DNA from: an uncultured archaeon
Lineage (GTDB): Archaea > Asgardarchaeota > Thorarchaeia > Thorarchaeales > Thorarchaeaceae
Assembly (NCBI GenBank): GCA_964458565.1
Contig: CAYWJO010000011.1
Span: 16,318-80,317 of the forward strand
Reading direction: 5' to 3'
DNA: 64,000 nucleotides
In this document: piece after piece, positions 11,558 through 24,012 of the stretch
Layout: every line of letters starts with the position of its first letter
Numbering within the stretch: the stretch's first letter is position 1
Program-made: the position numbers and the translations under genes
The notes under the pieces: generated by a model
Database searches by the model: none
What the model saw: only the letters and a program-made list of their open reading frames with translations
Told to the model about the DNA's origin: nothing

Positions 11558-12271
11558 CTACATCTTAAGCTTGGTCTGAACTTCAACTAGTCTCTCAGCG
11601 CTCTTTTCAGGTGGGCTCAGAAGCTTGACCCATATGATTTCTTCATCATCCATCCAAATGTCAACATAGCTTCTGGCAAACAAATGGAGTAGAGCAAAGA
11701 AGGTGCGAACTATCTCCTTTCTCGAATTATTCATAAGAATTTCTACAAATCGTGAAATCGCATTAATCTCCATCATTCCGTTCAAATCAGCGTAAATCTC
11801 AGAGATAATCTCTTCCACATTGGATTCATCTATCTCCATTATGATTGAAGGAGATCCAACCTTGGAGATTCCAGTTCTACCTCTGGGACTTGGTCGACTT
11901 CTCACTCCCTTTGTCAACACACGATCCATGGCAACAAGCAATTCCTCAAGAGTAACACGACGGTTGCTTAACCTAAATGGTGGTCGGATGAGCGGAATTA
12001 CAAGATCTTGTTCGTTGTCTTCTTCTTCAGGAGGTAGTATTCCCAACTGAACTAGTTCTCTTGTCTTTTTCATGAAAATGACAGATGCAGAATAGAGTGC
12101 ACTTCCTGACACCCTGAAATCGATATCACCAAGAAGTTTCATTTCACGTAGAAATGAACCAATCAGCTGTCCTACGTCAACATTCCATGGCTCGATTTTG
12201 TCAAGCTGGAGCACATCTGTGAGGAGGATATAGGGTGGTTCTGTCCAGAAAGGTCCTTTCTCATCACTCAT
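11558..12271 (-). CDS. scpA: Kleisin ScpA
   Basis: IEPWNVDV, VTLEELL and C-terminal FFALLHL; stop/start overlap with smc. Confidence 0.9.
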   Translation of the reverse strand: MSDEKGPFWTEPPYILLTDVLQLDKIEPWNVDVGQLIGSFLREMKLLGDIDFRVSGSALYSASVIFMKKTRELVQLGILPPEEEDNEQDLVIPLIRPPFRLSNRRVTLEELLVAMDRVLTKGVRSRPSPRGRTGISKVGSPSIIMEIDESNVEEIISEIYADLNGMMEINAISRFVEILMNNSRKEIVRTFFALLHLFARSYVDIWMDDEEIIWVKLLSPPEKSAERLVEVQTKLKM

Positions 12272-15200
12272 GCTGAAGATGACACCTCCTCTAGGTCTAC
12301 AGAAACAATTCGAGATATCCCATCTTGATTTGAAACACCAATAAGAAGATCAGCTTTTCGTAAAGTGGTTTCTCTAAGTGATACAACAATGAATTGAGAT
12401 GATTTAGACATCTCTGAGATAAGATTCGCCACGTTGTGTGCATTCACATCGTCTAATGCCGCATCAATCTCATCAAACACATAGAAGCTCGCAGGGCTAT
12501 ACATCTGTATAGCAAATATCAGTGCTAGACCTGTGATAGTCTTTTCGCCACCACTCATTGCATCTAGAGTCACCAAATCCTTTCCCCGAGGTTTTGAGCG
12601 AACTGTGATGCCTCCCATGAGTGGATGTTCCGGATTTTCTAGCATTAATGTAGCTTCTCCGCCTGGAGATAATTTAGCAAACACCTTTGAAAAATTATCC
12701 GCTATCTCATTGTACACAAGAAGGAACTTCTGAGTCTTCTCTCTTTCAATTTCCTCCATGAAGGCCACAATTTCTTTGTGTTCTTCTTCTAGTTTTTCCT
12801 TCTTTTCTACAATTTCTTCATATTTGTCCTTCTCAAGTGTATAATCTGTTAGAGATTTCAAATTGACTGGACCCATTGCTTCAAGCTCTCGCTCAAGCTC
12901 ACGAATCTTCTCCAATAGCTCATCAATTTCACGATACGTCAGTTCCTGTTTCTTCTCTCTTTTTGCAAGTTCCTCATCTACAGGAGTCATTGATGCAAGT
13001 TCCGCCATCTGAGCTACAATATCTGTTTCAAGTCTGGATTGTTCAGTCTGGAGTCGATACACTGCTTTTTCATTCTGTGTTTGAGCTTCTCGTATCTCTT
13101 CTTGTCTTGCTCTGAGATTTCTGAGTTCTTCTTTGAGTGTTAATTGTCTGACTCGCTTATCTTTAACAGCATCATCTATTCTATCTCGCTCATCCTTCAA
13201 TTTGAGAAATTCACTCTCTCTCTCAATAACATCCAATTCCAAGCGTTTTACATTCTCTTGAAATCCAGGAAGGGCATCTTTTAGGTTCTGAAGTTGAATT
13301 CCAAGCTCAGTTGCCTTTGGACTTAGCCGCTCTTCAACTGCAACTTTTTGTCCTGTTACAATACTGTTTATCTCATCTCGCTCAGTCTTATTTTGTGCAA
13401 GAATTTCCTTGAGATCTTTGATTTCTTGATTGATTTCAGCAGCACCGGATTTTACAAGTGTTTCATTGGCCTCATCTCTGAGATTGCGAACTCTTTCACG
13501 ATGTTCACTGAGTTCACCGTCACGTACGCGTAATTCTTCAATCTGACTTTCAAGAGCTTGTGTAGTTAATTTCGCGTTTTCAATTCTCTCTCTTAGTGCT
13601 TTCTCTCTAGCTTTTTTCTCCTTCTGTTTTTCTTCAAAACCTTCTAATTCTACACGCTCCCGATAGGTCTTATTGGACAGATCATGAAGGTCATCCTCCA
13701 GAGTATATTTCTGATCTCGTAATTCATCCTGCTGCTTTGTTAGATCAGCCAATATTGTTTCGAGTCCCTCAAGCTTCTTAGATATCTCAGGTGATGTGTC
13801 CTCAATCTGCAATGACAGTCCTGCGGCACCTCGTTGGTAGTAACCCCCTGTGATCAATCCGCTTGTTTCAACAAGATCGCCCTCTAAAGTGACAGCTCTC
13901 TTTCCCTTGAATCCGAGTTTCTTAGCAGTGGTGAAATCTTCTGTGACTATAGTATCTGAAAACACAAATTCGAATGCTGGAAGGAATTGTTCAGCAAATT
14001 CGACCAGATCAATAGCAAAACCAATGATTGTGCCATCGCTTGGTAGACTACTAGGAGATTTCGATTTTATTTTATTCAATGGAATGAATGAAGCGCGTCC
14101 AACTTTTTCCTGTTTCAAGATTTCAAGACATCGTGTTGCCACATCTTCATCATCGACTACTATGTGGGATAATCGACTTCCTCCAGCAACCTCAAGAGCA
14201 ACCGAATATTCCGGATCAATCTTTCCGAGTTCTGCAACGGTTCCATGGATTCCATCAACTACGCCTGTATCGCGAAGTTCGAGTACTCTAGCAACTGCCC
14301 TTCTCCGTTTCAGAAATGTTTCTTCTGCTTCTCTTAATGCATCTTGTCGAGCTTGAAGTTTAATCAGTTCTTCGCGTAAGCTGTTTACTATTTTTGCTGT
14401 TTCTATAACTTCTGCATCCACAAAAGAGAGCCGTTCTAACACTTTCTCAAGTTGGCCCTTTTTGGAGGTTTCAGTTTCTTCCATCTCCTGAAGAGTTTTG
14501 CTTCGAGTTGGTATAATTTCAGCAAGTTCAGTAAGTTCGTTCTCTGTTGTTCTTAAGCTCTCTTCCGAATCTCGAATCTCTTCAAAGGCAATACCAAGTT
14601 CCTTGTTATCAGATTTGATTGCCGATCGAATTTCAGAAACGCCCTCATCGAGTTGCACCATCTGAGTATTTAATTCTTGAAGACGTTGAGTTGTTTCCAG
14701 ATATGTTGTCTGTGCCTGTTCAGCAAGTTCCTCAAGCTTAGATATGCGCCTACCCGTTCCCTCAATTTCCTCATCTAGTATTTTTAACCGATCACTTTTC
14801 TCCGTTATTTTTAATTGAGATTCATCTATCTCACCCTGAATTTCTAATAGAAGCTCTTGCGTCTCGTCGTGCTCACGATTGGCTTTAGCAAATTCAGCTT
14901 GCGCTCTCTCAAGATTCGCTTTCGAATGTTCTACAGCCGCAGAAACAACACCAAATTGTTCTGAAACCCTGACTGAATCTCCACCAGTTATTTGATCAAT
15001 TAATTTGTCAATATCTTCTATTTCTGCTTCTGTTTCGAGCAGAGATTTTTCAACCACGGTAATCTCTTTTGTTAGTCCTTCCTCTTCTTCTGCTCTCTCC
15101 GCTAACGTTTCATTGATTGTTTGAATTCGATTACGTCCTTTGAGTAGGTTCCAAGCCATATGATCAATTCTGATCTCTTGGATTTTATTCCGAACTTCAG

Positions 15201-15858
15201 TGTATCTAAATGCGTCATCTCTCTCCATCTGGAGCCGCTCCAATTGACGGCGTCGCTCCTGAAGTTGAGTGTCAACTTTACCAAGATTAGATTCGCTCTC
15301 AGCTAGTTTCTTCAATGCACGGTCTTTCTGTTCATCATAAGCTGATATTCCAGCTATCTCCTCAATCAAGTTTCGACGATCAGTTGGACTTACTTTGACC
15401 ATCTGTGCGATTTCACCTTGAAGGACGAGATTATACCCATTAGGATCTACACCTATACTTCCAAGAACATCAAGTACAGCGTTCCTAGTTACAGTCTTGC
15501 TATTGATACGACAAACTGATTTTCCTGTGTCATCAAACTCTCGGACTACAACTACTTTGTCTGCCTCAACTTGGAGTTTTCTATCCTTGTTATTGAAGTG
15601 TAGTTCTACAGTTGCTGATTTTGCTTTTGGTGGCATATCCGGTTTTGGTGGTGAATAGAGAAGATCTGAAAATACGGTAGCACGAAGCGTTTTTGCACTG
15701 AGTTGTCCGAGTACAAAGAGAACCGCATCAATGACGTTTGATTTTCCTGAACCATTTGGTCCCATGACACATGTGAATCCAGGATTAAATTTGATGGTGA
15801 CGGAGTCTCGACCAAATGATTTGAAGCCTTTAACTACTAGCTTCTCTATCCAAACCAA
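12268..15858 (-). CDS. smc: Chromosome segregation protein SMC
   Basis: GFKSF, Walker A GPNGSGKSN, hinge, signature SGGEK, DEIDAALD. The likely start is TTG at 15858, after an AGGGAG RBS. Confidence 0.96.
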   Translation of the reverse strand: MVWIEKLVVKGFKSFGRDSVTIKFNPGFTCVMGPNGSGKSNVIDAVLFVLGQLSAKTLRATVFSDLLYSPPKPDMPPKAKSATVELHFNNKDRKLQVEADKVVVVREFDDTGKSVCRINSKTVTRNAVLDVLGSIGVDPNGYNLVLQGEIAQMVKVSPTDRRNLIEEIAGISAYDEQKDRALKKLAESESNLGKVDTQLQERRRQLERLQMERDDAFRYTEVRNKIQEIRIDHMAWNLLKGRNRIQTINETLAERAEEEEGLTKEITVVEKSLLETEAEIEDIDKLIDQITGGDSVRVSEQFGVVSAAVEHSKANLERAQAEFAKANREHDETQELLLEIQGEIDESQLKITEKSDRLKILDEEIEGTGRRISKLEELAEQAQTTYLETTQRLQELNTQMVQLDEGVSEIRSAIKSDNKELGIAFEEIRDSEESLRTTENELTELAEIIPTRSKTLQEMEETETSKKGQLEKVLERLSFVDAEVIETAKIVNSLREELIKLQARQDALREAEETFLKRRRAVARVLELRDTGVVDGIHGTVAELGKIDPEYSVALEVAGGSRLSHIVVDDEDVATRCLEILKQEKVGRASFIPLNKIKSKSPSSLPSDGTIIGFAIDLVEFAEQFLPAFEFVFSDTIVTEDFTTAKKLGFKGKRAVTLEGDLVETSGLITGGYYQRGAAGLSLQIEDTSPEISKKLEGLETILADLTKQQDELRDQKYTLEDDLHDLSNKTYRERVELEGFEEKQKEKKAREKALRERIENAKLTTQALESQIEELRVRDGELSEHRERVRNLRDEANETLVKSGAAEINQEIKDLKEILAQNKTERDEINSIVTGQKVAVEERLSPKATELGIQLQNLKDALPGFQENVKRLELDVIERESEFLKLKDERDRIDDAVKDKRVRQLTLKEELRNLRARQEEIREAQTQNEKAVYRLQTEQSRLETDIVAQMAELASMTPVDEELAKREKKQELTYREIDELLEKIRELERELEAMGPVNLKSLTDYTLEKDKYEEIVEKKEKLEEEHKEIVAFMEEIEREKTQKFLLVYNEIADNFSKVFAKLSPGGEATLMLENPEHPLMGGITVRSKPRGKDLVTLDAMSGGEKTITGLALIFAIQMYSPASFYVFDEIDAALDDVNAHNVANLISEMSKSSQFIVVSLRETTLRKADLLIGVSNQDGISRIVSVDLEEVSSSA

Positions 15859-16322
15859 GACGGACTCCCTTCTAATATTGATATTCGCAATTGCTCCCAA
15901 GCTCTGAGGCGTGCCAGCATTACCTGGAAGATACACGGTGTTTAATTTCACCGTTGGTAACACTCAGGTATTACCTGGATGATATCCAGAATACCATCTG
16001 TGTTTTATTGAGCATCAACACTTGTCTACAAAAAGGTACCTCTATTGCCGTTTATTGTCATTTGAGCAAACTTGAGTATCAAGTTGTCCGCCCAGAAACG
16101 GCACTAGGCTCATGTTGTTGAACATCCATGAATTTTCTAGCTGCGTTGCCACTGAGCACCATCCGAAGTAGAGATTGGAAGTTGCCTACTATTGGAGATA
16201 CTCCGATGTATGATGACATTAGGGTCATCGTAAGGCATAGGAGTGATTGTATTGATGTTGCTCTCACACATATCCTCCATTTGCAGGGTTGGTCGAAGCG
16301 ATTTAAGAATCAATGGCGCGGA

Positions 16323-16541
16323 ATGGTTGTTCGTGATTATGATTTGGATGATGTGGTTCCTGATAAAACAACTAGGAACCAAATGAAACTGATTGCACTG
16401 ACGATACTTCCATGGCTAGCGAATATGTATGATGATGTCATTCTGTCTGAAGATACCAAGATCAATCTGAATGAAGGTATGAGAGAGGTGATGAAAGAAT
16501 TAACAGAGTATCCTGACTCTATTGAAGAGGATGATGTGTGA
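16323..16541 (+). CDS. Small acidic hypothetical protein
   Basis: 72-aa ORF from ATG 16323 with protein-like composition; no recognisable motif. Confidence 0.4.
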   Translation: MVVRDYDLDDVVPDKTTRNQMKLIALTILPWLANMYDDVILSEDTKINLNEGMREVMKELTEYPDSIEEDDV

Positions 16542-16577
16542 AGAACGGCATAAGAGCAGTTATCTGAAGAAGCTGTT

Positions 16578-17310
16578 GTGTATATTGGAGGGAGTAAGGT
16601 GTATTCTCGAAAAACAGTGACTATGGTCTTGCTTGGGCTTGTTATGTCATTTGGTGTGCTTCTCACAGTATCATTGATGGATTCGCAAGGAACTAGTTTA
16701 CCGAGAGGCGCCTTCACACCTTCAAATGAGTATACCCTTCAATTCTCCACCTTCTTAGGCGGTACTGACAGGTATTCTCAAGGACTCAGGGAAAGAGAGC
16801 TTTAGCACCGGATGTTCCAATATATATTTGGTTTCTTCGCGAGAACTGTGGATTGCTGGTTATACAAAGTATTCTGGATTTCCAACCACTGAGGATGCTT
16901 TTGATAGAACATTCAACAATGAAGATGGATATTTTATGATGATAGACCCTATTAGTTGTAGTCTTAACTATTCCAGCTTCTTCGGAGGGTCATCTCAAGA
17001 TTCCATCTATAAAATAGTGATGACTTCTCAAGGAGAGATAGTGTGCGCTGGTTCTACATATTCAGCTAACTTCCCAACTATGAATGCGTTGCTTTCAGAA
17101 AAACCTGGAGATCGTGATGGCTTCGTGTTCAAACTCATATTGAATGAGACCACCTCTACCGCTTTCTCCTCGACTTCCACTATTACACCAACAACATCCT
17201 CCATATATACTTCAATGGATATGATCTATGTTGCACTAGCGGGAGTGAGTCTGGGTGTGATAGTTCTGGTTGTTATCGTTACTATTGTTAGAAAAAAGCG
17301 CACATTGTAA
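16578..17310 (+). pseudogene. Disrupted SBBP-repeat (beta-propeller) surface protein
   Basis: Signal peptide plus 'FSTFLGGT' in one frame; 'IAGYT..FPTT..YSSFFGGS..AGSTYSANFPT..DGFVFKL' plus S/T linker and TM helix in another. The frame break is near 16770. Confidence 0.65.
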
Positions 17311-17571
17311 ATGGAGCTAGAACTATCAATAAAATGACATCAAGAAGTCTGTATTTATCACTAAGAGCGAGCTATTGATAATTATCTGGTATTCTGTAAC
17401 ATTGTAAATATTTCCCTATTGTTTCATCACATTATGATACATGGATGTACTCCCAATCACAGTTTAGCCTATGCTAGTGAAAACATGATTGTTTCATGAA
17501 GTGACTATCATATCAATGGTCAAGTATATTTATCCTCTCTATATCAGTTAATGTGCCCTATAGTAAACGCC

Positions 17572-17943
17572 TTACTTAATCATTGAAACTAAGGCACGTC
17601 TTAATGCTATTCTGAGGAGCCCCATTGACTCACGGGCACCTTCGCCTGCCATCGCAGCAAGTACCAGTTTCACATCCCCTAGAATGATTGTGAATCCTTT
17701 TTCTGATGCTATACTGACTTCTTTTAGACCGCCCTTATCGAGATTAATAGCAAGCTGAGAGGAATTTCCTGCAATCTTGACAACAAGTCCCGCGACATCC
17801 TCGTGTCTTATTCCGCCACTCAAAGTATGACCAAAGATGACGCCTCCTTTTATATCGCTAACAATTATTCCTTCCAAATCCGGGTTGGCTGCCATGGTTT
17901 CTGCTACAATTTGCTCAATCTTTTCTTTCTTGACCATTGACAT
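17572..17943 (-). CDS. Roadblock/LC7-domain protein
   Basis: 123 aa; roadblock pattern LEGIIVSDIKGGVI...LDKGGLKEVSI...MGLLRIAL. Confidence 0.75.
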   Translation of the reverse strand: MSMVKKEKIEQIVAETMAANPDLEGIIVSDIKGGVIFGHTLSGGIRHEDVAGLVVKIAGNSSQLAINLDKGGLKEVSIASEKGFTIILGDVKLVLAAMAGEGARESMGLLRIALRRALVSMIK

Positions 17944-18099
17944 ATTCTCCTAAGCGGCTTATTACTAGCATAGATGTGACTCTTATGTACTTTATAACTT
18001 CTGTGTTGCTATTTGTATTTTAGGACCACTCATACTTGTTGTCCCAAAGTTTAATATCGTTCACGGTAAGAAACCGCCAAATCTTTTGGAGATAAATTA

Positions 18100-19719
18100 A
18101 TGCCCATGCTCAAAACTAGCTCTGAGGCTTTTCCCTCATCCAGAGATATGATGAAGGACATTCCTTATGTCCTACGTGTTCGGTTTGGAGAACTAGCCGA
18201 TGATACAACTAAGATTGTGGGAAAGCCTATCGCCTGTCACAAATGTAATGGATTCCTTTTGAGTGTTGAACAAATTAAGGAAGACCCAAAAGTAGGCAGG
18301 CATTTCATTTGTCCCTTCTGTAGCACATTAAATGTTATTGAGGGAGAGATTGTATTCGCAGGATCGGATTCCGATTTTGAACTTGAACCACCCACGGTGA
18401 CTGACACAACAACAGATGTTGTCACATCTGGTGGTAAATCATTCTTGGCACTCATTGATGTGTCAGGGTCAATGTCAGGTGGCAATCTTGCAGCTGTGAA
18501 ACGTAGTCTGACGACTTCGATAGAGAGTCTCGCTGCTAATTCACCAGACACCCTCTTCGGACTAATAGAGTTCGAGAGTTCAGTTTTACTCAGGAATTTA
18601 GAAAATGGTGCACCACTTGAATTACCACAGGACACTTTTGCGAATCTTGATAGTATCATGGATGCAACAAAGAAGATGCTTGACAAGGTGAAGCTTATAC
18701 CTGTTGGTAAGAACTCTGATTCGATTAAGAAGCATGTTCAAGCATTACGCGACCAAGGAGGTACTGCTCTTGGTCCCGCTGTGGCTATGGCGTATGTTAT
18801 TGCTAAACATCGTAGTGTTGGACGTGTAGTACTTCTTACTGACGGACTAGCAAATGAGGGAATTGGCGCCTTAGAGGGATATCAAGTCACTCCCCCCACT
18901 CAATATTATGAGGGCTTGGGGCAACAATTCCGAGAACTCGGCACTTCTCTTGATGTTGTAGGAATTGCTTCAGGTGCAGGGATGGAACTAAAGACTCTTG
19001 GTCTCCTGCCCGAGGCTACTGGTGGTCAGATGTACTATGTAACTCCAAACGAGCTTGATAGAAGTATATCCGAACTTGCAGGAGCTTCTCTCTTAGGTCG
19101 TGACGTTGAGGTTCGGCTTATCACTCCTCCTGGAGTCAGGGTCAAGGATGCATCTGGTGTATCCAGAGCAGTTGTTGATGAGCTAACCAAGAAGCAAGAT
19201 AGTAAAATCGGTGTTGTTGGAAACCGCCATGAACTTTACTTCGAAGTAGAACCTAAATCTGAGATAAAGGAGGAAGAAGTGCCTATTCAGGTACAAGTTT
19301 CTTATACGGATGAAGATGGCTCTCGTCGCGTTAGGGCTCTAACAACAAAGCTCAAGGTTGCAAGGAATGAGGAGGAGGTCCTAAAAACCCTTGATCCTAC
19401 GGTTGGCGCTGTCTTTGTCACTCAGAAAGCAGGTGAGGAAGCATTTCGTGGAGATCGTGAGAAGGGTAAGAAGCGAATCGCAACATTTCGATCAGCTCTG
19501 AAGAGTAAAGCTGAGGGTGCTTCCGGTGGGGCAAGAGCACGATTTGAGAAAGCAGATGATGCACTTGAATCTGAGGAAGAGGAACTTGAGATGCAGATGA
19601 AGGAGATGGAAGAAGCACCTTCTGCTGCGCCCTCTGCTGCAGCTGACATGGTTTCAACGCAAAATCTTCGACAGATGAAGAGAAGCTCAAAAGACCTGTT
19701 CGAAGACGAAGAAGAGTAA
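18100..19719 (+). CDS. Sec23/Sec24-like zinc-finger + vWA (trunk) + beta-sandwich protein
   Basis: PIACHKC...FICPFCSTLN zinc finger; MIDAS DVSGS, GTALG, LLTDG; YYEGLG...SLDVV and EATGG follow the Sec23/24 trunk layout. Confidence 0.8.
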   Translation: MPMLKTSSEAFPSSRDMMKDIPYVLRVRFGELADDTTKIVGKPIACHKCNGFLLSVEQIKEDPKVGRHFICPFCSTLNVIEGEIVFAGSDSDFELEPPTVTDTTTDVVTSGGKSFLALIDVSGSMSGGNLAAVKRSLTTSIESLAANSPDTLFGLIEFESSVLLRNLENGAPLELPQDTFANLDSIMDATKKMLDKVKLIPVGKNSDSIKKHVQALRDQGGTALGPAVAMAYVIAKHRSVGRVVLLTDGLANEGIGALEGYQVTPPTQYYEGLGQQFRELGTSLDVVGIASGAGMELKTLGLLPEATGGQMYYVTPNELDRSISELAGASLLGRDVEVRLITPPGVRVKDASGVSRAVVDELTKKQDSKIGVVGNRHELYFEVEPKSEIKEEEVPIQVQVSYTDEDGSRRVRALTTKLKVARNEEEVLKTLDPTVGAVFVTQKAGEEAFRGDREKGKKRIATFRSALKSKAEGASGGARARFEKADDALESEEEELEMQMKEMEEAPSAAPSAAADMVSTQNLRQMKRSSKDLFEDEEE

Positions 19720-19729
19720 TTATGCAATC

Positions 19730-19764
19730 GTGACGTCAATTTTGGCGTCACTTCCTATTTTTTT
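19730..19764 (+). terminator. Hairpin plus T-tract
   Basis: GTGACGTCA-ATTT-TGGCGTCAC followed by TTCCTATTTTTTT. Confidence 0.55.
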
Positions 19765-19904
19765 CCCAATTTCGCGTAATACAAAGCTAATAAATGCGCA
19801 AAATATACTCTCTTGGCTAGGAATATTAGCACAATTCCTAAATACCCAGACGCGGCGTAAGAATTACGAAGCGTTAACAATTGACAGCAGCGGAGATTCG
19901 GTAA

Positions 19905-20198
19905 TTGATAAGTCAAGACAAACTCCAGGAAATCCTCAATAGGCTTAAAGCACAAGAAGGTGTTCGTGGAGTAGTAGTAACCACAATGGAGGGGTTACCC
20001 CTCAGTAGTGATCTTGACGCAGACACTACCGAGAATGTTGCAGCCATCATAACCTCGCTTGTGGGAAAGGCACTAGATGCAGTAAAAGAACTTAAGGAGG
20101 GTAATCTCTCCTTTCTGACACTTGATACATCAAAGGGCCAAATAAATATCGCACCGGAACCAAAAGAGGGCCTAATATTAGTGGTCCTGAAGATATAA
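19905..20198 (+). CDS. Roadblock/LC7-domain protein
   Basis: [19 protein letters not shown]...VAAIITSL...LILVVL. Confidence 0.9.
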
Positions 20199-20219
20199 TG
20201 ATGAAATGGAGTTAGAAAA

Positions 20220-20687
20220 ATGAGCGATCCGAAAGCCTTCGATAAGATTCTCACCGATATCATAAGACAAGATAAGGGAATCAAAAAAATCATACTAACA
20301 GATAAGACTGGTCTCACCATTGCTAATGTAAGCAAATTGTCATACTATCCAGTAGATGTCGACTCCATAGGTGCAATTGCAAGCGCTGTGTTCTGTGCAA
20401 GTGAGGAACAAGGTAAGAACCTGCAGATTGGTGAACTTGAGATAGTCACATCCGAATTCTCTGAAGGCAAGATTTTTGCATCCGCTTGTGGAAAAGGTGT
20501 TCTTTGTGTTGTGTCAGAGGCTGAGGTAAATATCGGTCTAATTCGTTTGCTCATGAAGAAACAAGGCTTGACTCTTGCACAGGAGCTAGACAAGTTCCTT
20601 ACTGTAGATTCCTCTGGTCCGGGTAAGGACAAAGAACTTGATGAGGAAGACTTACGCTCTGCTCTTGCTGAACTAGAGAAAGTATAA
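20220..20687 (+). CDS. Roadblock/MglB-like protein with an acidic C-terminal helix
   Basis: IILTDKTGLTIA...IGAIASAVF...NIGLIRL core plus a ~30-aa C-terminal extension. Confidence 0.85.
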   Translation: MSDPKAFDKILTDIIRQDKGIKKIILTDKTGLTIANVSKLSYYPVDVDSIGAIASAVFCASEEQGKNLQIGELEIVTSEFSEGKIFASACGKGVLCVVSEAEVNIGLIRLLMKKQGLTLAQELDKFLTVDSSGPGKDKELDEEDLRSALAELEKV

Positions 20688-20915
20688 TCTCTGTTAGCGC
20701 AAATACTCGTAACTCCAGAAGTCCCGTGCCACAAAGGCTTTTATTAGGCTGGACTGTTAGAACATCCAGCCCTGAAACTAGACTTCATGTTCAGAGAGCT
20801 AACCCATCAACATTGACCTCGTCAATCAAAATATGCAGTGAATCAATGAGGTGTAAAAAATTAGGAAGGACCTCTCATTAACACTCACCAAAACCCGAAT
20901 TAGTGGAGGCTTTTT

Positions 20916-21479
20916 ATGAGAAAAGACTTAGCTGGCCGCATACATCTTAAGCTTGTCTTCTATGGTCCATCACTAGGAGGCAAAACAACTGCATTAAGAT
21001 GGTTGTACGGTAAAGTCGAAGGCCTGCAGAAAGGTGAGTTCACTGCTATCGAGGATGAAACGAATCGGACCTTATTCTTCGACTATGTACCAATGAGTGC
21101 AGGTGGTCGAGTGCTGTTTGATGTGTTTACTGTTGCAGGCCAGAAGCGACATAGACATCAAAGAAAGGTTGTTCTTCAAGGCACAGATGGAATCCTATTT
21201 GTCGCAGACTCTTCCCCCGATCAACGTGAAGAGAACACAGAAAGCTTTGAGGAGCTCAAGTTATTTCTCGGAGATGCGTTGGGTCGTGAAATCCCAATAG
21301 TTGTTATGTTGAACAAGCGTGACCTACCAAACAGGATGTCACGAGACGAAATGCTTGACCTGCTCGGTCTAGGTGGGAACGTACCTATATATGAGACAAT
21401 AGCTGTCCAAGGAGTAGGTGTAAAACGAGCTTTCCAGTCGATAGCGCGAGAAGTGATATTGAAACGAATGTACAAGTAG
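20916..21479 (+). CDS. mglA: MglA-type small GTPase
   Basis: KLVFYGPSLGGKTT (G1), RTLFFDY (MglA switch I), TVAGQ (MglA-type G3), NKRD (G4). Confidence 0.85.
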   Translation: MRKDLAGRIHLKLVFYGPSLGGKTTALRWLYGKVEGLQKGEFTAIEDETNRTLFFDYVPMSAGGRVLFDVFTVAGQKRHRHQRKVVLQGTDGILFVADSSPDQREENTESFEELKLFLGDALGREIPIVVMLNKRDLPNRMSRDEMLDLLGLGGNVPIYETIAVQGVGVKRAFQSIAREVILKRMYK

Positions 21480-21488
21480 GGTGAGACC

Positions 21489-21860
21489 ATGGCAGAAACA
21501 CGTGGAGATACTCTTGAAGGTGTATTGAATGAGTTACAGGGTAGTATACCCGAGATTGAGGCATGTGCCATTGTGAGTGTTGAGGGTCTACCAATTGTGT
21601 CGGCTCTACCAGCTGATGTTGATGAGGCTAAAGTCGCTGCTATGACTGCTGCTATGTTAACCCTCGGCGAAAAAGCGGCGATGGAACTTGGAAAGGGTAA
21701 TCTTGAACAGGTCAATGTCAAAGGTGTTGATGGGTGGCTACTTGTCGTAGCAGCTGGTATGAATGCATGTCTTACTGTATCAACCACTGCTAATGCCAAA
21801 TTAGGGCTAATCTTTCTTGACATGAAACGTGCTGCTGATAAGATTGCAAAGATGATTTAG
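21489..21860 (+). CDS. Roadblock/LC7 (MglB-like) protein
   Basis: IEACAIVSVEGLPIVSAL...VAAMTAAMLTLGE...AKLGLIFLDMKRAA. Confidence 0.92.
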   Translation: MAETRGDTLEGVLNELQGSIPEIEACAIVSVEGLPIVSALPADVDEAKVAAMTAAMLTLGEKAAMELGKGNLEQVNVKGVDGWLLVVAAGMNACLTVSTTANAKLGLIFLDMKRAADKIAKMI

Positions 21861-21924
21861 TCCGTAGTTCAATCCTGACACTAACATCAAGTCTTTTAGG
21901 GGAACACATTCAGCTCGAATGTAG

Positions 21925-22704
21925 GTGTTGAACTACTTGAATCTCGCTGGGCCCGTCTATAGACTGTACGAGTATTGGCTTTACCAACAATTGGACAAAA
22001 AGAAAGCCCCCCATCATGTCGGTATCATTCTAGATGGTAATAGACGATATGCCCGTGAACATGGAATTGACATGCCATGGTTTGGCCACCATAAAGGTGC
22101 TCAGAAAGTCATGGAAGTTCTTCGCATTCTTTGGGAGGCTGGAGTGAAGGTATGTACCCTCTATGCCTTCTCAGCTGAGAATTTCGATCGTACAGATGAT
22201 GAGATTAATGAAATCATGATAATTGCACGTGAAAAGTTCAATGAGGTTGTCGGTAACCCAGATGTTCATCGTCATCGTGTTCGAATCAGAGCAATCGGAC
22301 GAACTGACCTTTTACCAGAAGAAGTTCAGGATTCAATTCAGCTTGCTGAAGCAGAAACCGCACAATATAGCGATCATATATTGAACGTAGCAATCAGCTA
22401 CACAGGGAGAGCTGAGCTCGTTGATGCTGTTCGTTCGATTGGGGAGAAGATACAGTCTGGTGAGTTATCACCGAGTGCTATCGATGAGCGTGTGATTGAA
22501 ACCCATCTCTATACCAATGGTGTTCCTGATCCCGACCTCATCATACGTACTAGTGGTGAAGAGCGCCTCTCTGGATTCTTACTCTGGCAATCTGCATATT
22601 CTGAGCTCTATTTTGCTCAAATTTACTGGCCTGCAGTGAGAAGGATAGACATCTGGCGTGCATTGCGATCGTATGAAAAACGACACCGACGTTATGGAAA
22701 ATAA
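21925..22704 (+). CDS. uppS: cis-prenyltransferase (polyprenyl diphosphate synthase)
   Basis: HVGIILDGNRR, YAFSAENFDR and DLIIRTSGEERLSGFLLWQ. Confidence 0.95.
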   Translation: MLNYLNLAGPVYRLYEYWLYQQLDKKKAPHHVGIILDGNRRYAREHGIDMPWFGHHKGAQKVMEVLRILWEAGVKVCTLYAFSAENFDRTDDEINEIMIIAREKFNEVVGNPDVHRHRVRIRAIGRTDLLPEEVQDSIQLAEAETAQYSDHILNVAISYTGRAELVDAVRSIGEKIQSGELSPSAIDERVIETHLYTNGVPDPDLIIRTSGEERLSGFLLWQSAYSELYFAQIYWPAVRRIDIWRALRSYEKRHRRYGK

Positions 22705-22815
22705 AATAGCCATCAATAGCAAACGTTACACAGCCTTTTATGTAATATGACTTGAAATGTACGATGGAATAGAACTGAGTCGGAATCTTGTAAAACGAAC
22801 AGGAGAAAAACGCTC

Positions 22816-24012
22816 TTGACGAGAAGGCCAATTGATGTGTATCGGGGAATAATGGAGTCACAGCTGGACTCAGGTCTCTCTCCACACATCACATCTTTTG
22901 TGAATCAATTTTCTGATTATACGTTTGCTGGACATCCTGTTTCAGCACATATTACGAGATTTCTTGACATAATTGCGCGATTGGTAGCATATCTGGATTC
23001 AAGAACAGTCGCTGGACTTGAAGATCTCACCCTCGCAATTGACACTCTTGATTATTTTTCATCATCATCAAAATGGTGGAATATTGAACGCAAGGATCCC
23101 AGTTTCATAATTAAACCTCCTGCACAAGACCCCCGAGAACTCATGGGATTGTTAGCTAACGTAACAGTCGATAGTGGAACAATGAGCAGAATCACAGGTT
23201 CTATTGAACGCCTAGCTAGATTTCTAGATGAGCATAAGTTCACTCACCAAGAAGCATCTGATAAGCTGTCTGAATCTTTGGCATCAATGTGGGTCTTACT
23301 AAGTGCATTTGCCTGCAAGGGGCAAGGTCGTAATGTCACATCCGAGAATGACTTTGAGATTGCTTATGATACTGTACGCATACTGCTCTTTCATTGTACA
23401 CGCGATAATTTTAGAACACTGACTTCAGTTCGCTTACTCGGAATGAGCAGCAAGCTAGCAAAAGTAACAACAATCGGGATCTCTCCCGGGTTTGAAGACA
23501 GATTAGATTCTTCCATTGCTTCCACGCTTGAAAATTCGTATCATGAAGAATCCAATGCTCCAACTCACAAACTATCTACCTCTATACGTCATGTGTTTAC
23601 AAATTCTCTTAGACTGCTATCGCAACTTGAGGCTCTTGAGCGCGGTCTTGACAGAATAGAAGCTTCTGATTATCAGAGTGTTATTAGGGGTGCGTTAGAC
23701 AGGCTATCTTCTATGAATATCGATGAAGGAATTCTGCACACTGAGACCCTTGCGATAGGGCTATTCAAGAGAACCGAATTATCAGAAGAATTAGTTCAAA
23801 GAATGGACCTACTTGCTCGGCGTCTTGAGGGACTCATTGTAGCTGCAACAGGAAATCGGGAGTTTCTATTCAAGTATAGTAAACTTGTTCCAAGATTGTT
23901 GTCTTTGATACTCCTCTTAGCAGGTGGTACTATTGATAAGTCTAGGAACTCCGTTGAATATGATGACATCGAGCGAGCCATGATTTTAGTTCACTCATTA
24001 TTCAGCAGCTAA
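22816..24012 (+). CDS. Hypothetical protein with four tandem AAA+-lid-like helical repeats
   Basis: 398-aa ORF with a repeated R-x6-D-hydrophobic-x2-A motif about every 100 aa; no Walker motifs. Confidence 0.65.
   Translation: MTRRPIDVYRGIMESQLDSGLSPHITSFVNQFSDYTFAGHPVSAHITRFLDIIARLVAYLDSRTVAGLEDLTLAIDTLDYFSSSSKWWNIERKDPSFIIKPPAQDPRELMGLLANVTVDSGTMSRITGSIERLARFLDEHKFTHQEASDKLSESLASMWVLLSAFACKGQGRNVTSENDFEIAYDTVRILLFHCTRDNFRTLTSVRLLGMSSKLAKVTTIGISPGFEDRLDSSIASTLENSYHEESNAPTHKLSTSIRHVFTNSLRLLSQLEALERGLDRIEASDYQSVIRGALDRLSSMNIDEGILHTETLAIGLFKRTELSEELVQRMDLLARRLEGLIVAATGNREFLFKYSKLVPRLLSLILLLAGGTIDKSRNSVEYDDIERAMILVHSLFSS

Follow-up and report, generated by a model that had tools for sequence, protein, structure and literature searches.

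The MglA/MglB switch of Myxococcus xanthus and Thermus thermophilus (PDB 3t12, 6izw, 6h5b), the Ragulator-Rag machinery (LAMTOR1-5, RagA/C), the COPII subunits Sec23 and Sec24 (PDB 1m2v, 1m2o), the eukaryotic cpRAS-VWA proteins (Elias and Novotny 2008, PMC2430557) and the ArnA/ArnB pair of Sulfolobus (PDB 8s05; PMC12852372) are the described systems closest to a six-gene cluster that we examined in an uncultured Thorarchaeota archaeon. The cluster occupies positions 17572 to 21860 of a stretch of 64,000 nucleotides (nt) on contig CAYWJO010000011.1, referred to below as the window, and its source is a metagenome-assembled genome (MAG) of 3.7 Mb in 93 contigs that is 93% complete. It encodes an MglA-type small GTPase, four roadblock proteins, named RblA to RblD here, and a Zn-finger/vWA protein resembling Sec23 and Sec24. 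We consider it probable, at roughly 0.7, that the locus is a composite, in which an ancient MglA/MglB-type switch was joined later by an inserted Sec23/24-like gene.

According to Tran et al. (2024, PMC10933270), the Asgard roadblock structures 7f8m, 7f8f and 7yh1 (MK-D1 Roadblock) were each studied singly, as homodimers, and the GTPase genes of MK-D1 generally lie outside operons with roadblock genes. The passages searched in that paper make no mention of the conserved cluster of four roadblock genes and MglA that many non-Loki Asgard families carry. Two further MK-D1 structures, Roadblock2 (9jq8) and Roadblock3 (9jue), are PDB deposits only. A single MglA/MglB-like pair from Thorarchaeota was the subject of modelling in a paper of 2026 (PMC13408092). 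The literature searched gave no account of a cluster with four roadblock genes.

The MglA-type GTPase and its roadblock proteins

All six open reading frames (ORFs) have exactly the limits given in the first-pass annotation of the window, and its account of four roadblock genes, a Zn-finger/vWA gene of the Sec23/24 type and an MglA-type GTPase gene is confirmed. The order SMC - RblA - Sec23/24-like - RblB - RblC - GTPase - RblD - UPPS - orf398 recurs in 17 other loci of the Thorarchaeota family (the Thor loci), so the six genes are real and chance ORFs are excluded. Gene identities and the pattern of synteny were established directly, as were the conserved promoter elements and the gene losses described below. 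The features of the cluster are as follows (aa, amino acids; values are Pfam E values).

17572..17943, minus strand: RblA, divergent full-length roadblock protein of 123 aa; Robl_LC7 E 1e-3 (below gathering score)
17944..18099, no strand: divergent intergenic region with a TATA-like box, TTTAATAT, and a GGAG ribosome-binding site; predicted promoter
18100..19719, plus strand: Sec23/24-like protein of 539 aa; Sec23_trunk 5.7e-12, Sec23_BS 3.6e-8, VWA 1e-7, weak zf-Sec23_Sec24
19730..19763, plus strand: terminator-like hairpin, 9 bp stem and T7 run, just 3' of the Sec23/24-like stop codon
19794..19846, plus strand: predicted RblB promoter and leader elements, conserved, ATGCGCAAA and CACAA-TC-TAAATACC
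19905..20198, plus strand: RblB, short roadblock protein of 97 aa; Robl_LC7 4e-17; RBLC7 / dynein-LC7 type without the C-terminal helix
20220..20687, plus strand: RblC, MglB-equivalent roadblock protein of 155 aa with a C-terminal extension; MAPKK1_Int and Robl_LC7, both about 8e-9
20688..20915, plus strand: variable spacer from RblC to the GTPase gene, with a TATA-like box, GGCTTTTATTAGG (about 20737-20749), and a GGAGG ribosome-binding site
20916..21479, plus strand: MglA-type small GTPase of 187 aa; top Pfam family Arf, top solved relatives MglA
21489..21860, plus strand: RblD, full-length roadblock protein; Robl_LC7 2.6e-16

Among solved structures, the M. xanthus and T. thermophilus MglA proteins were the best relatives of the GTPase (E 3e-38), followed by Arf (2e-12) and Rab7 (6e-8). 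Its G3 motif reads TVAGQ, in which T72 replaces the usual Asp, and both T72 and Q76 are nearly invariant among 14 Asgard sequences. The switch-I residue R51 is invariant in the Asgard orthologues and in the alignment falls on the Arg that M. xanthus MglA has in ETDRTLFFDF (Arg53), and the NKxD motif, present as NKRD, is invariant or nearly so. With the bacterial MglA proteins the GTPase thus has in common the G3 Thr, the switch-I Arg, the catalytic Gln and the length of the G1-G2 segment, and the MglA type proposed earlier is borne out by these residues and by the structural relatives. The protein was matched in 336 of 400 Asgard genomes and in 79 of 85 genera (E <= 1e-55), with an identity that falls from 89-97% within the Thorarchaeota family to 86% in its sister family and to 56-65% over the whole phylum. 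Beyond Asgard, a scan of species-representative genomes placed bacterial MglA nearest, at about 40-44% identity. The mean pairwise distance among 14 Thor genomes was 0.05 for the GTPase, compared to 0.49 for SMC and 0.54 for the Sec23/24-like protein; an evolution about ten times slower than that of the neighbours is an unusual constraint for a small regulatory GTPase.

The four roadblock proteins are distinct from one another. RblB, RblC and RblD score above the Pfam Robl_LC7 cut-off. RblA is a genuine roadblock despite its sub-threshold score: the profile of its orthologs aligned with RblD at 98.3% probability (hhalign), the family profile matched MK-D1 Roadblock2 (9jq8) at E 2.5e-22 in the search of solved structures, and the AlphaFold2 (AF2) model, with a predicted local distance difference test (pLDDT) value of 83.7, had roadblock, MglB and LAMTOR structures as its top Foldseek matches. 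The nearest solved relatives of RblB were Odin-RBLC7 (7f8f, E 2.6e-27) and then the eukaryotic dynein light chain roadblock (E 1e-13), and those of RblC were M. xanthus MglB (E 4e-5, the C-terminal extension included) and then LAMTOR2. Among single-family roadblock models, the bacterial mglB genes upstream of mglA gave their top score with the RblC model. On sequence criteria, RblC is therefore the MglB equivalent and RblB a short form like dynein LC7, and RblC with the GTPase makes up the mglBA core. RblD was nearest to Thor-RB (7f8m, E 6.5e-25) and also matched MK-D1 Roadblock3 (9jue, E 2.7e-17); the level of the Thor-RB match suggests a paralogue. That the GTPase is clustered with roadblock genes, as first reported, thus stands, with the MglB equivalent RblC among them.

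Outside the Thorarchaeota family the cluster persists without the Sec23/24-like gene, in a minimum of seven other Asgard families. This was found in genomes G025 (family f2), G036 (f13), G027 (f4), G030 (f7), G035 (f12) and G031 (f8), and also in the named MAGs LC30 and DZ2M.271. RblD is inverted in the G027 cluster, and RblA, where detected (G025, G027, G035 and G031), is directly divergent to RblB. In distant families (G028, G039 and Heimdallarchaeota YT1_002) only the RblB-GTPase pair is kept, and in others the GTPase stands alone. The MglA switch with four distinct roadblock partners is thus phylum-wide and very conserved, and broader than the reading first given to it. The conservation of four distinct paralogues with the GTPase across many Asgard families makes a multi-roadblock regulatory platform for this GTPase plausible.

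Two gene pairs are tightly spaced in the Thor loci. RblB and RblC are separated by 0-25 nt, and the GTPase and RblD by 2-20 nt in most loci; the RblC-GTPase spacer measures 111-2307 nt, and the predicted GGCTTTTATTAGG box upstream of the GTPase recurs in three of the loci (L022, L024, L025). Some spacers are long and probably carry insertions, namely RblC-GTPase of 2.3 kb (L022:3694-6014) and 1.0 kb (L037:5001-6024) and GTPase-RblD of 0.8 kb (L032:10471-11268); additional DNA is evidently tolerated at these places.

We suggest that an ancient MglA/MglB-type switch of nearly all Asgard archaea would work as follows. RblC holds the place 5' of the GTPase that mglB has in bacteria, RblB is tightly paired with RblC and the GTPase with RblD, and RblA stands divergent, just upstream of SMC. 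We infer that roadblock dimers, very likely an RblB/RblC pair and a dimer containing RblD, dock on the switch regions of the GTPase and set its GTP/GDP state, serving as GAP (GTPase-activating protein) and possibly as GEF (guanine nucleotide exchange factor), as MglB does. The GTPase itself brings the catalytic kit of MglA, an intrinsic arginine and a glutamine, and the output would be the positioning or polarity of some cellular machinery. A further likeness to the bacterial system is RblC, which is extended at its C terminus and, like MglB, is encoded just upstream of the GTPase. In contrast to that system, the host is an archaeon, the Thor cluster adds three conserved roadblock paralogues (RblA, RblB of the RBLC7 type and RblD), and neither known MglA effectors nor RomR/RomX homologues were identified in the Thor case.

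The label Ragulator-like, which had been offered as one reading of the cluster, fails. Like Ragulator-Rag, the locus encodes several long and short roadblock paralogues together with a small GTPase. However, a single-domain MglA of 187 aa takes the place of the Rag heterodimer with its C-terminal roadblock domains, and its Gtr1_RagA match reached only E 0.027. There is one short roadblock (RblB) and three long ones, compared to two long (LAMTOR2/3) and two short (LAMTOR4/5), and no gene for a LAMTOR1-like scaffold was seen in the conserved block.

The Sec23/24-like protein and its gene

The Sec23/24-like protein begins with beta strands at its N terminus, and these are followed by a zinc finger (CxxC..CxxC) and a vWA/trunk domain. 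A beta-sandwich comes next, then a helical region in the C-terminal part and, last, an acidic tail. Residues C46, C49, C71 and C74 of the Zn finger and D120, S122, S124, T222 and D248, which form a complete MIDAS (an adhesion site that depends on metal ions), are invariant across 40 homologues. The AF2 model (pLDDT 87.9, predicted template modelling score, pTM, 0.88) had Sec23 and Sec24 as its top Foldseek matches (E 2e-30, template modelling (TM) score 0.72-0.74). Well below these came a vWA protein from a bacterium and, with E 7e-16 and TM 0.49, the ArnAB complex 8s05, which its depositors described as an archaeal ortholog of the Sec23/24 core (PMC12852372). Five helices (residues 424-535) were modelled with high confidence and had no Pfam Sec23_helical match. 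No gelsolin domain was matched by Pfam in the 539-aa protein or seen in its AF2 model, the chain ends after the helical region, and Asgard Sec23-like proteins are likewise without this domain (PMC11914678). The genome has a single Sec23_trunk match at its 93% completeness, and most relatives have one per genome.

The overall fold and the order of Zn finger, trunk/vWA and beta-sandwich are those of the COPII subunits, and the predicted helical region would correspond to theirs. The differences are the missing gelsolin domain, and with it the Arg finger for Sar1; the MIDAS, which is complete here and incomplete in Sec24; one gene per genome in place of a Sec23/Sec24 pair; and a neighbouring GTPase that is of the MglA type instead of Sar1/Arf. 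The family profile aligned with yeast Sec24 over residues 5-462 (E 3.5e-12, 49 bits), where DxSxS is kept and Phe and Gly stand at the positions of the MIDAS Thr and Asp. The same profile gave about 160-210 bits (E about 1e-45 to 1e-57) on eukaryotic proteins of the cpRAS-VWA type and on Zn-finger-VWA proteins that stand alone, whose sources include Dictyostelium, Willaertia, Entamoeba, echinoderms and molluscs, and BLASTP between the Thor protein and a Dictyostelium protein gave E 2e-33. By these scores, the Asgard proteins have their nearest eukaryotic relatives in sequence in this little-known family of cpRAS-VWA and stand-alone Zn-finger-VWA proteins, ahead of Sec23/24. The two groups share the Zn finger, the MIDAS residues and the TALGPA and TDG-x-N-x-G-x-G motifs. 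They differ in that the eukaryotic proteins carry extensions, among them a circularly permuted Ras domain at the N terminus, and the Thor protein is without a GTPase domain. Several members of the cpRAS-VWA family are fused to a Ras-type GTPase domain, and the match list of a cpRAS protein against solved structures was dominated by its Ras domain.

Some further features of these relatives may be recorded here. The complete MIDAS is kept in the cpRAS-VWA and stand-alone Zn-finger-VWA proteins P0159, P0182, P0252, P0237, P0163 and P0158. In P0240 and P0272 an actin domain is fused to the Zn-finger-VWA module, and their cluster includes a protein from a choanoflagellate (Acanthoeca). A metagenomic relative, P0187, has Kelch and ankyrin repeats.

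The Sec23/24-like protein occurs in 147 of 400 Asgard genomes from about a dozen families, and its gene stands between RblA and RblB in the Thorarchaeota family only. Ten other families, represented by 20 genera, have it away from the MglA cluster, as do one genus of the sister family f2 and G004 with its relocated copy. The first-pass annotation had named synteny across Asgard genomes as a check of its module. This test showed that the linkage of the gene with the GTPase is confined to one family, with the gene elsewhere in the 22 genera examined and lost or moved in three Thor genomes. Of these three, G003 retains only the last 30 codons of the gene between RblA and RblB, and no second copy was detected. 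No copy was detectable in G012, which is 98% complete and has a cluster rearranged upstream of RblB. In G004 the cluster is without the gene, and a copy is found on another contig among unrelated genes; it nests on a long branch within the Thor clade of the tree (support 99), and is thus a relocated orthologue. The switch genes are intact in all three. We conclude that the Sec23/24-like gene is a family-specific insertion that is dispensable for the switch. It would have entered the spacer between the divergent RblA gene and the RblB promoter in an ancestor of the Thorarchaeota family, where it would be transcribed alone, and its deletion, loss or relocation in three Thor genomes would reflect this dispensability.

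The transcription signals are in line with such an origin. A predicted TATA-like box, TTTAATAT, lies about 45 nt 5' of the Sec23/24-like start codon and is followed by a GGAG site; a box of the TTTAATA type and a TTTTGGAG element are partly conserved among the 17 Thor loci. Upstream of RblB, the elements ATGCGCAAA and CCACAAGTCTAAAATACC are near-invariant in these loci, and a TATA-like box is predicted about 60 nt upstream of the gene. The RblB elements are found at an unchanged distance from RblB in G004 (fully), in G003 and in G012, where the first element differs by one base, and their persistence where the Sec23/24-like gene is absent suggests separate transcription. The gap between the Sec23/24-like gene and RblB is mostly 70-200 nt. 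In this genome the stop codon is followed by the hairpin (9 bp stem) and T7 run listed above, and T-runs of at least five occur in the spacer to RblB in 6 of 18 Thor loci, so that their conservation is weak.

One module or a composite locus

In the first-pass annotation the six Thor genes were taken as one module, in which MglA is controlled by roadblock heterodimers and, when bound to GTP, recruits the Sec23/24-like protein; this effector would form a proto-coat or an adaptor at the membrane. The adjacency of the genes is stable in most sampled Thor genera, the protein has the Sec23/24 fold, and its nearest eukaryotic relatives carry a fused cpRAS GTPase domain, all of which would fit such a module. 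However, SMC, UPPS and orf398 on the flanks show an equal degree of synteny in these genomes, and synteny within the family is therefore uninformative on specific function. The linkage is absent from every other family, G003, G012 and G004 have kept the switch genes intact although the Sec23/24-like gene was lost or moved, and this gene appears to have its own promoter and terminator signals. The gelsolin domain, which in Sec23 contacts Sar1 and gives the arginine finger, is missing (PMC11914678). Published pull-downs of three Asgard Sec23-like proteins are a further point against the module, as their co-precipitation with Asgard Arf, a GTPase other than the MglA studied here, was weak and independent of the nucleotide (PMC11914678).

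The rates of evolution also speak against one module. In the residuals of pairwise distances among 14 Thor genomes, no covariation was found between the Sec23/24-like protein and the GTPase or roadblock proteins (r -0.01 to 0.25, Mantel p > 0.14), compared to r 0.49 for RblC with the GTPase; since the GTPase hardly varies, this is a weak test. Outside the Thorarchaeota family, the gene directly upstream of the Sec23/24-like gene encodes a roadblock protein in G160 and an Arf/Ras-like GTPase in G193, which would favour a partnership. In G225 the gene is about 0.8 kb downstream of a Ras-family GTPase gene, and in G167 it is about 1 kb from a 500-aa ORF containing a roadblock domain. GTPase or roadblock genes made up 4 of the 82 genes within two positions of the Sec23/24-like gene and were found in 4 of 22 genera, compared to at least 1 of 203 among the farther genes of the same loci, a lower bound that leaves weak single matches uncounted. 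The density of Ras-like and roadblock genes over whole genomes is one per 44-67 kb, by which about 1.8 genera would be expected where four were observed (P about 0.1). The enrichment of such neighbours outside the family is thus not significantly above background, and we did not count it as evidence. Therefore, the claim of a single module stands for the GTPase and its four conserved roadblocks and is not supported for the Sec23/24-like gene, which is family-specific and, by its signals, probably a transcription unit of its own. We regard the module as a whole as unlikely and a role of the Sec23/24-like protein as an effector of MglA as doubtful, and a physical link between this protein and the MglA GTPase is rather unlikely.

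Some observations weigh against the composite origin that we prefer. The position within the cluster is kept in all 17 other Thor loci that carry the gene there, which represent most sampled genera, down to a protein identity of 55%, and such a stable position could reflect selection for co-location. The promoter and terminator assignments, from which we infer that the gene has its own transcription unit, are at the level of sequence. A functional tie of Sec23/24-like proteins to small GTPases in general is plausible, in view of the cpRAS fusions, the binding of Sec23/24 to Sar1 and the four genera with a GTPase or roadblock gene nearby. Canonical Sec23/24 is bound by Sar1. The eukaryotic fusions are the best hint of a GTPase partnership for the Sec23/24-like family, and this hint is not specific to MglA.

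Two other roles may be considered for the protein. Zn-finger/MIDAS-vWA/beta-sandwich proteins might be ancestral effectors of small GTPases, such that GTP-bound MglA, set by two roadblock dimers, would recruit the Thor protein, and the arrangement would survive in the cpRAS-VWA fusions and in Sec23/24-Sar1; we hold this to be improbable. Alternatively, the protein might be a signalling adaptor of the ArnB type, a MIDAS-vWA/beta-sandwich/helical scaffold whose partners are set by phosphorylation or by metal-dependent ligand binding, independently of the GTPase next to it. The Foldseek match to 8s05 and a profile match to ArnB (E 1.7e-4) point in this direction, and so do the MIDAS, which is complete like the metal-binding MIDAS of ArnB (PMC12852372) and has its Thr and Asp replaced in yeast Sec24, and the Zn finger, which packs on a core of the kind that ArnB offers to the Zn finger of ArnA (PMC12852372). 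In both systems a MIDAS vWA domain splits a beta-sandwich and a helical C-terminal domain follows, with a Zn finger on the core. In ArnA/ArnB, however, a separate FHA protein carries the Zn finger, which in the Thor protein is fused, and the system is regulated by phosphorylation. The similarity to Sec23/24 is far stronger than that to ArnAB, no FHA, kinase or phosphatase genes were seen among the scanned neighbours, and the ArnAB mechanism is known from the Sulfolobales only. An ArnB-type role is thus very unlikely, and the composite of an old switch and a later insertion remains our preferred explanation.

Flanking genes and implications

Two conserved genes flank the cluster in the window.

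12268..15963, minus strand: SMC gene; Pfam SMC_N 2e-69, SMC_hinge 4e-33; conserved flank
21925..22704, plus strand: cis-prenyltransferase gene (UPPS family); Pfam Prenyltransf 3.5e-75; conserved downstream context

In the Thor loci, in f2 (L045), in f12 (L049) and in L086, SMC comes directly downstream of RblA in the same orientation, about 95-285 nt away. This adjacency (12268-17943 in the window; L045, L049, L086) hints at a possible tie of RblA, or of the switch as a whole, to division or to the segregation of chromosomes. In the window, SMC and RblA are separated by about 1.6 kb (15964-17571) with two orphan ORFs (16128-16541 and 16828-17310) that have no family match; the gap is about 95-200 nt in other Thor loci, and the stretch therefore looks like a strain-specific insertion. 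UPPS adjoins RblD in f1, f2, f13, f12 and f8 and also in L085 and L086, with a gap of 55-90 nt in most loci. It is followed on its 3' side in all Thor loci by orf398 (22816-24012), which has no family match and evolves fast (mean pairwise distance about 1.0). The Rfam search of 15900-22900 gave no match, and the NCBIfam search gave no further names for the proteins of the locus.

Genome G000 has two paralogues of the MglA-type GTPase. One (L060, contig 2) is 282 aa long, is extended by about 95 aa at its N terminus and has about 50% identity, and an RblD-like gene is found about 7 kb upstream of it. The other (L061, contig 5) is about 35% identical and is two genes away from a 315-aa ORF containing a roadblock domain. 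In G225 (L074:5850-9602; also L075 and L076), the genes for an Rce1-like CAAX protease, a Ras-family GTPase, a peroxiredoxin fragment and the Sec23/24-like protein follow one another in this order on one strand. The GTPase lacks a CAAX box at its C terminus, as was found for the Ras-like GTPase beside the Rce1-like protease in the f9 locus.

In the debate on the origin of eukaryotic membrane traffic, a central place falls to the small GTPases, the roadblock proteins and the Sec23/24-like proteins of Asgard archaea, and almost nothing ties specific Asgard GTPases to specific regulators or effectors. As a family-specific insertion, the Sec23/24-like neighbour cannot by itself support a proto-coat model. 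The useful leads from this locus are the connection of the Asgard proteins with the cpRAS-VWA family and the defined roadblock set for MglA. The former bears on whether the Asgard Sec23/24-like proteins gave rise directly to the COPII subunits or to a different eukaryotic family. If Zn-finger/MIDAS-vWA/beta-sandwich proteins were indeed ancestral GTPase effectors, the locus would be a pre-eukaryotic counterpart of GTPase regulation on a roadblock platform. As for the latter, an Asgard MglA that is nearly universal and very slowly evolving, together with its four fixed roadblock partners, is a defined protein set for reconstitution.

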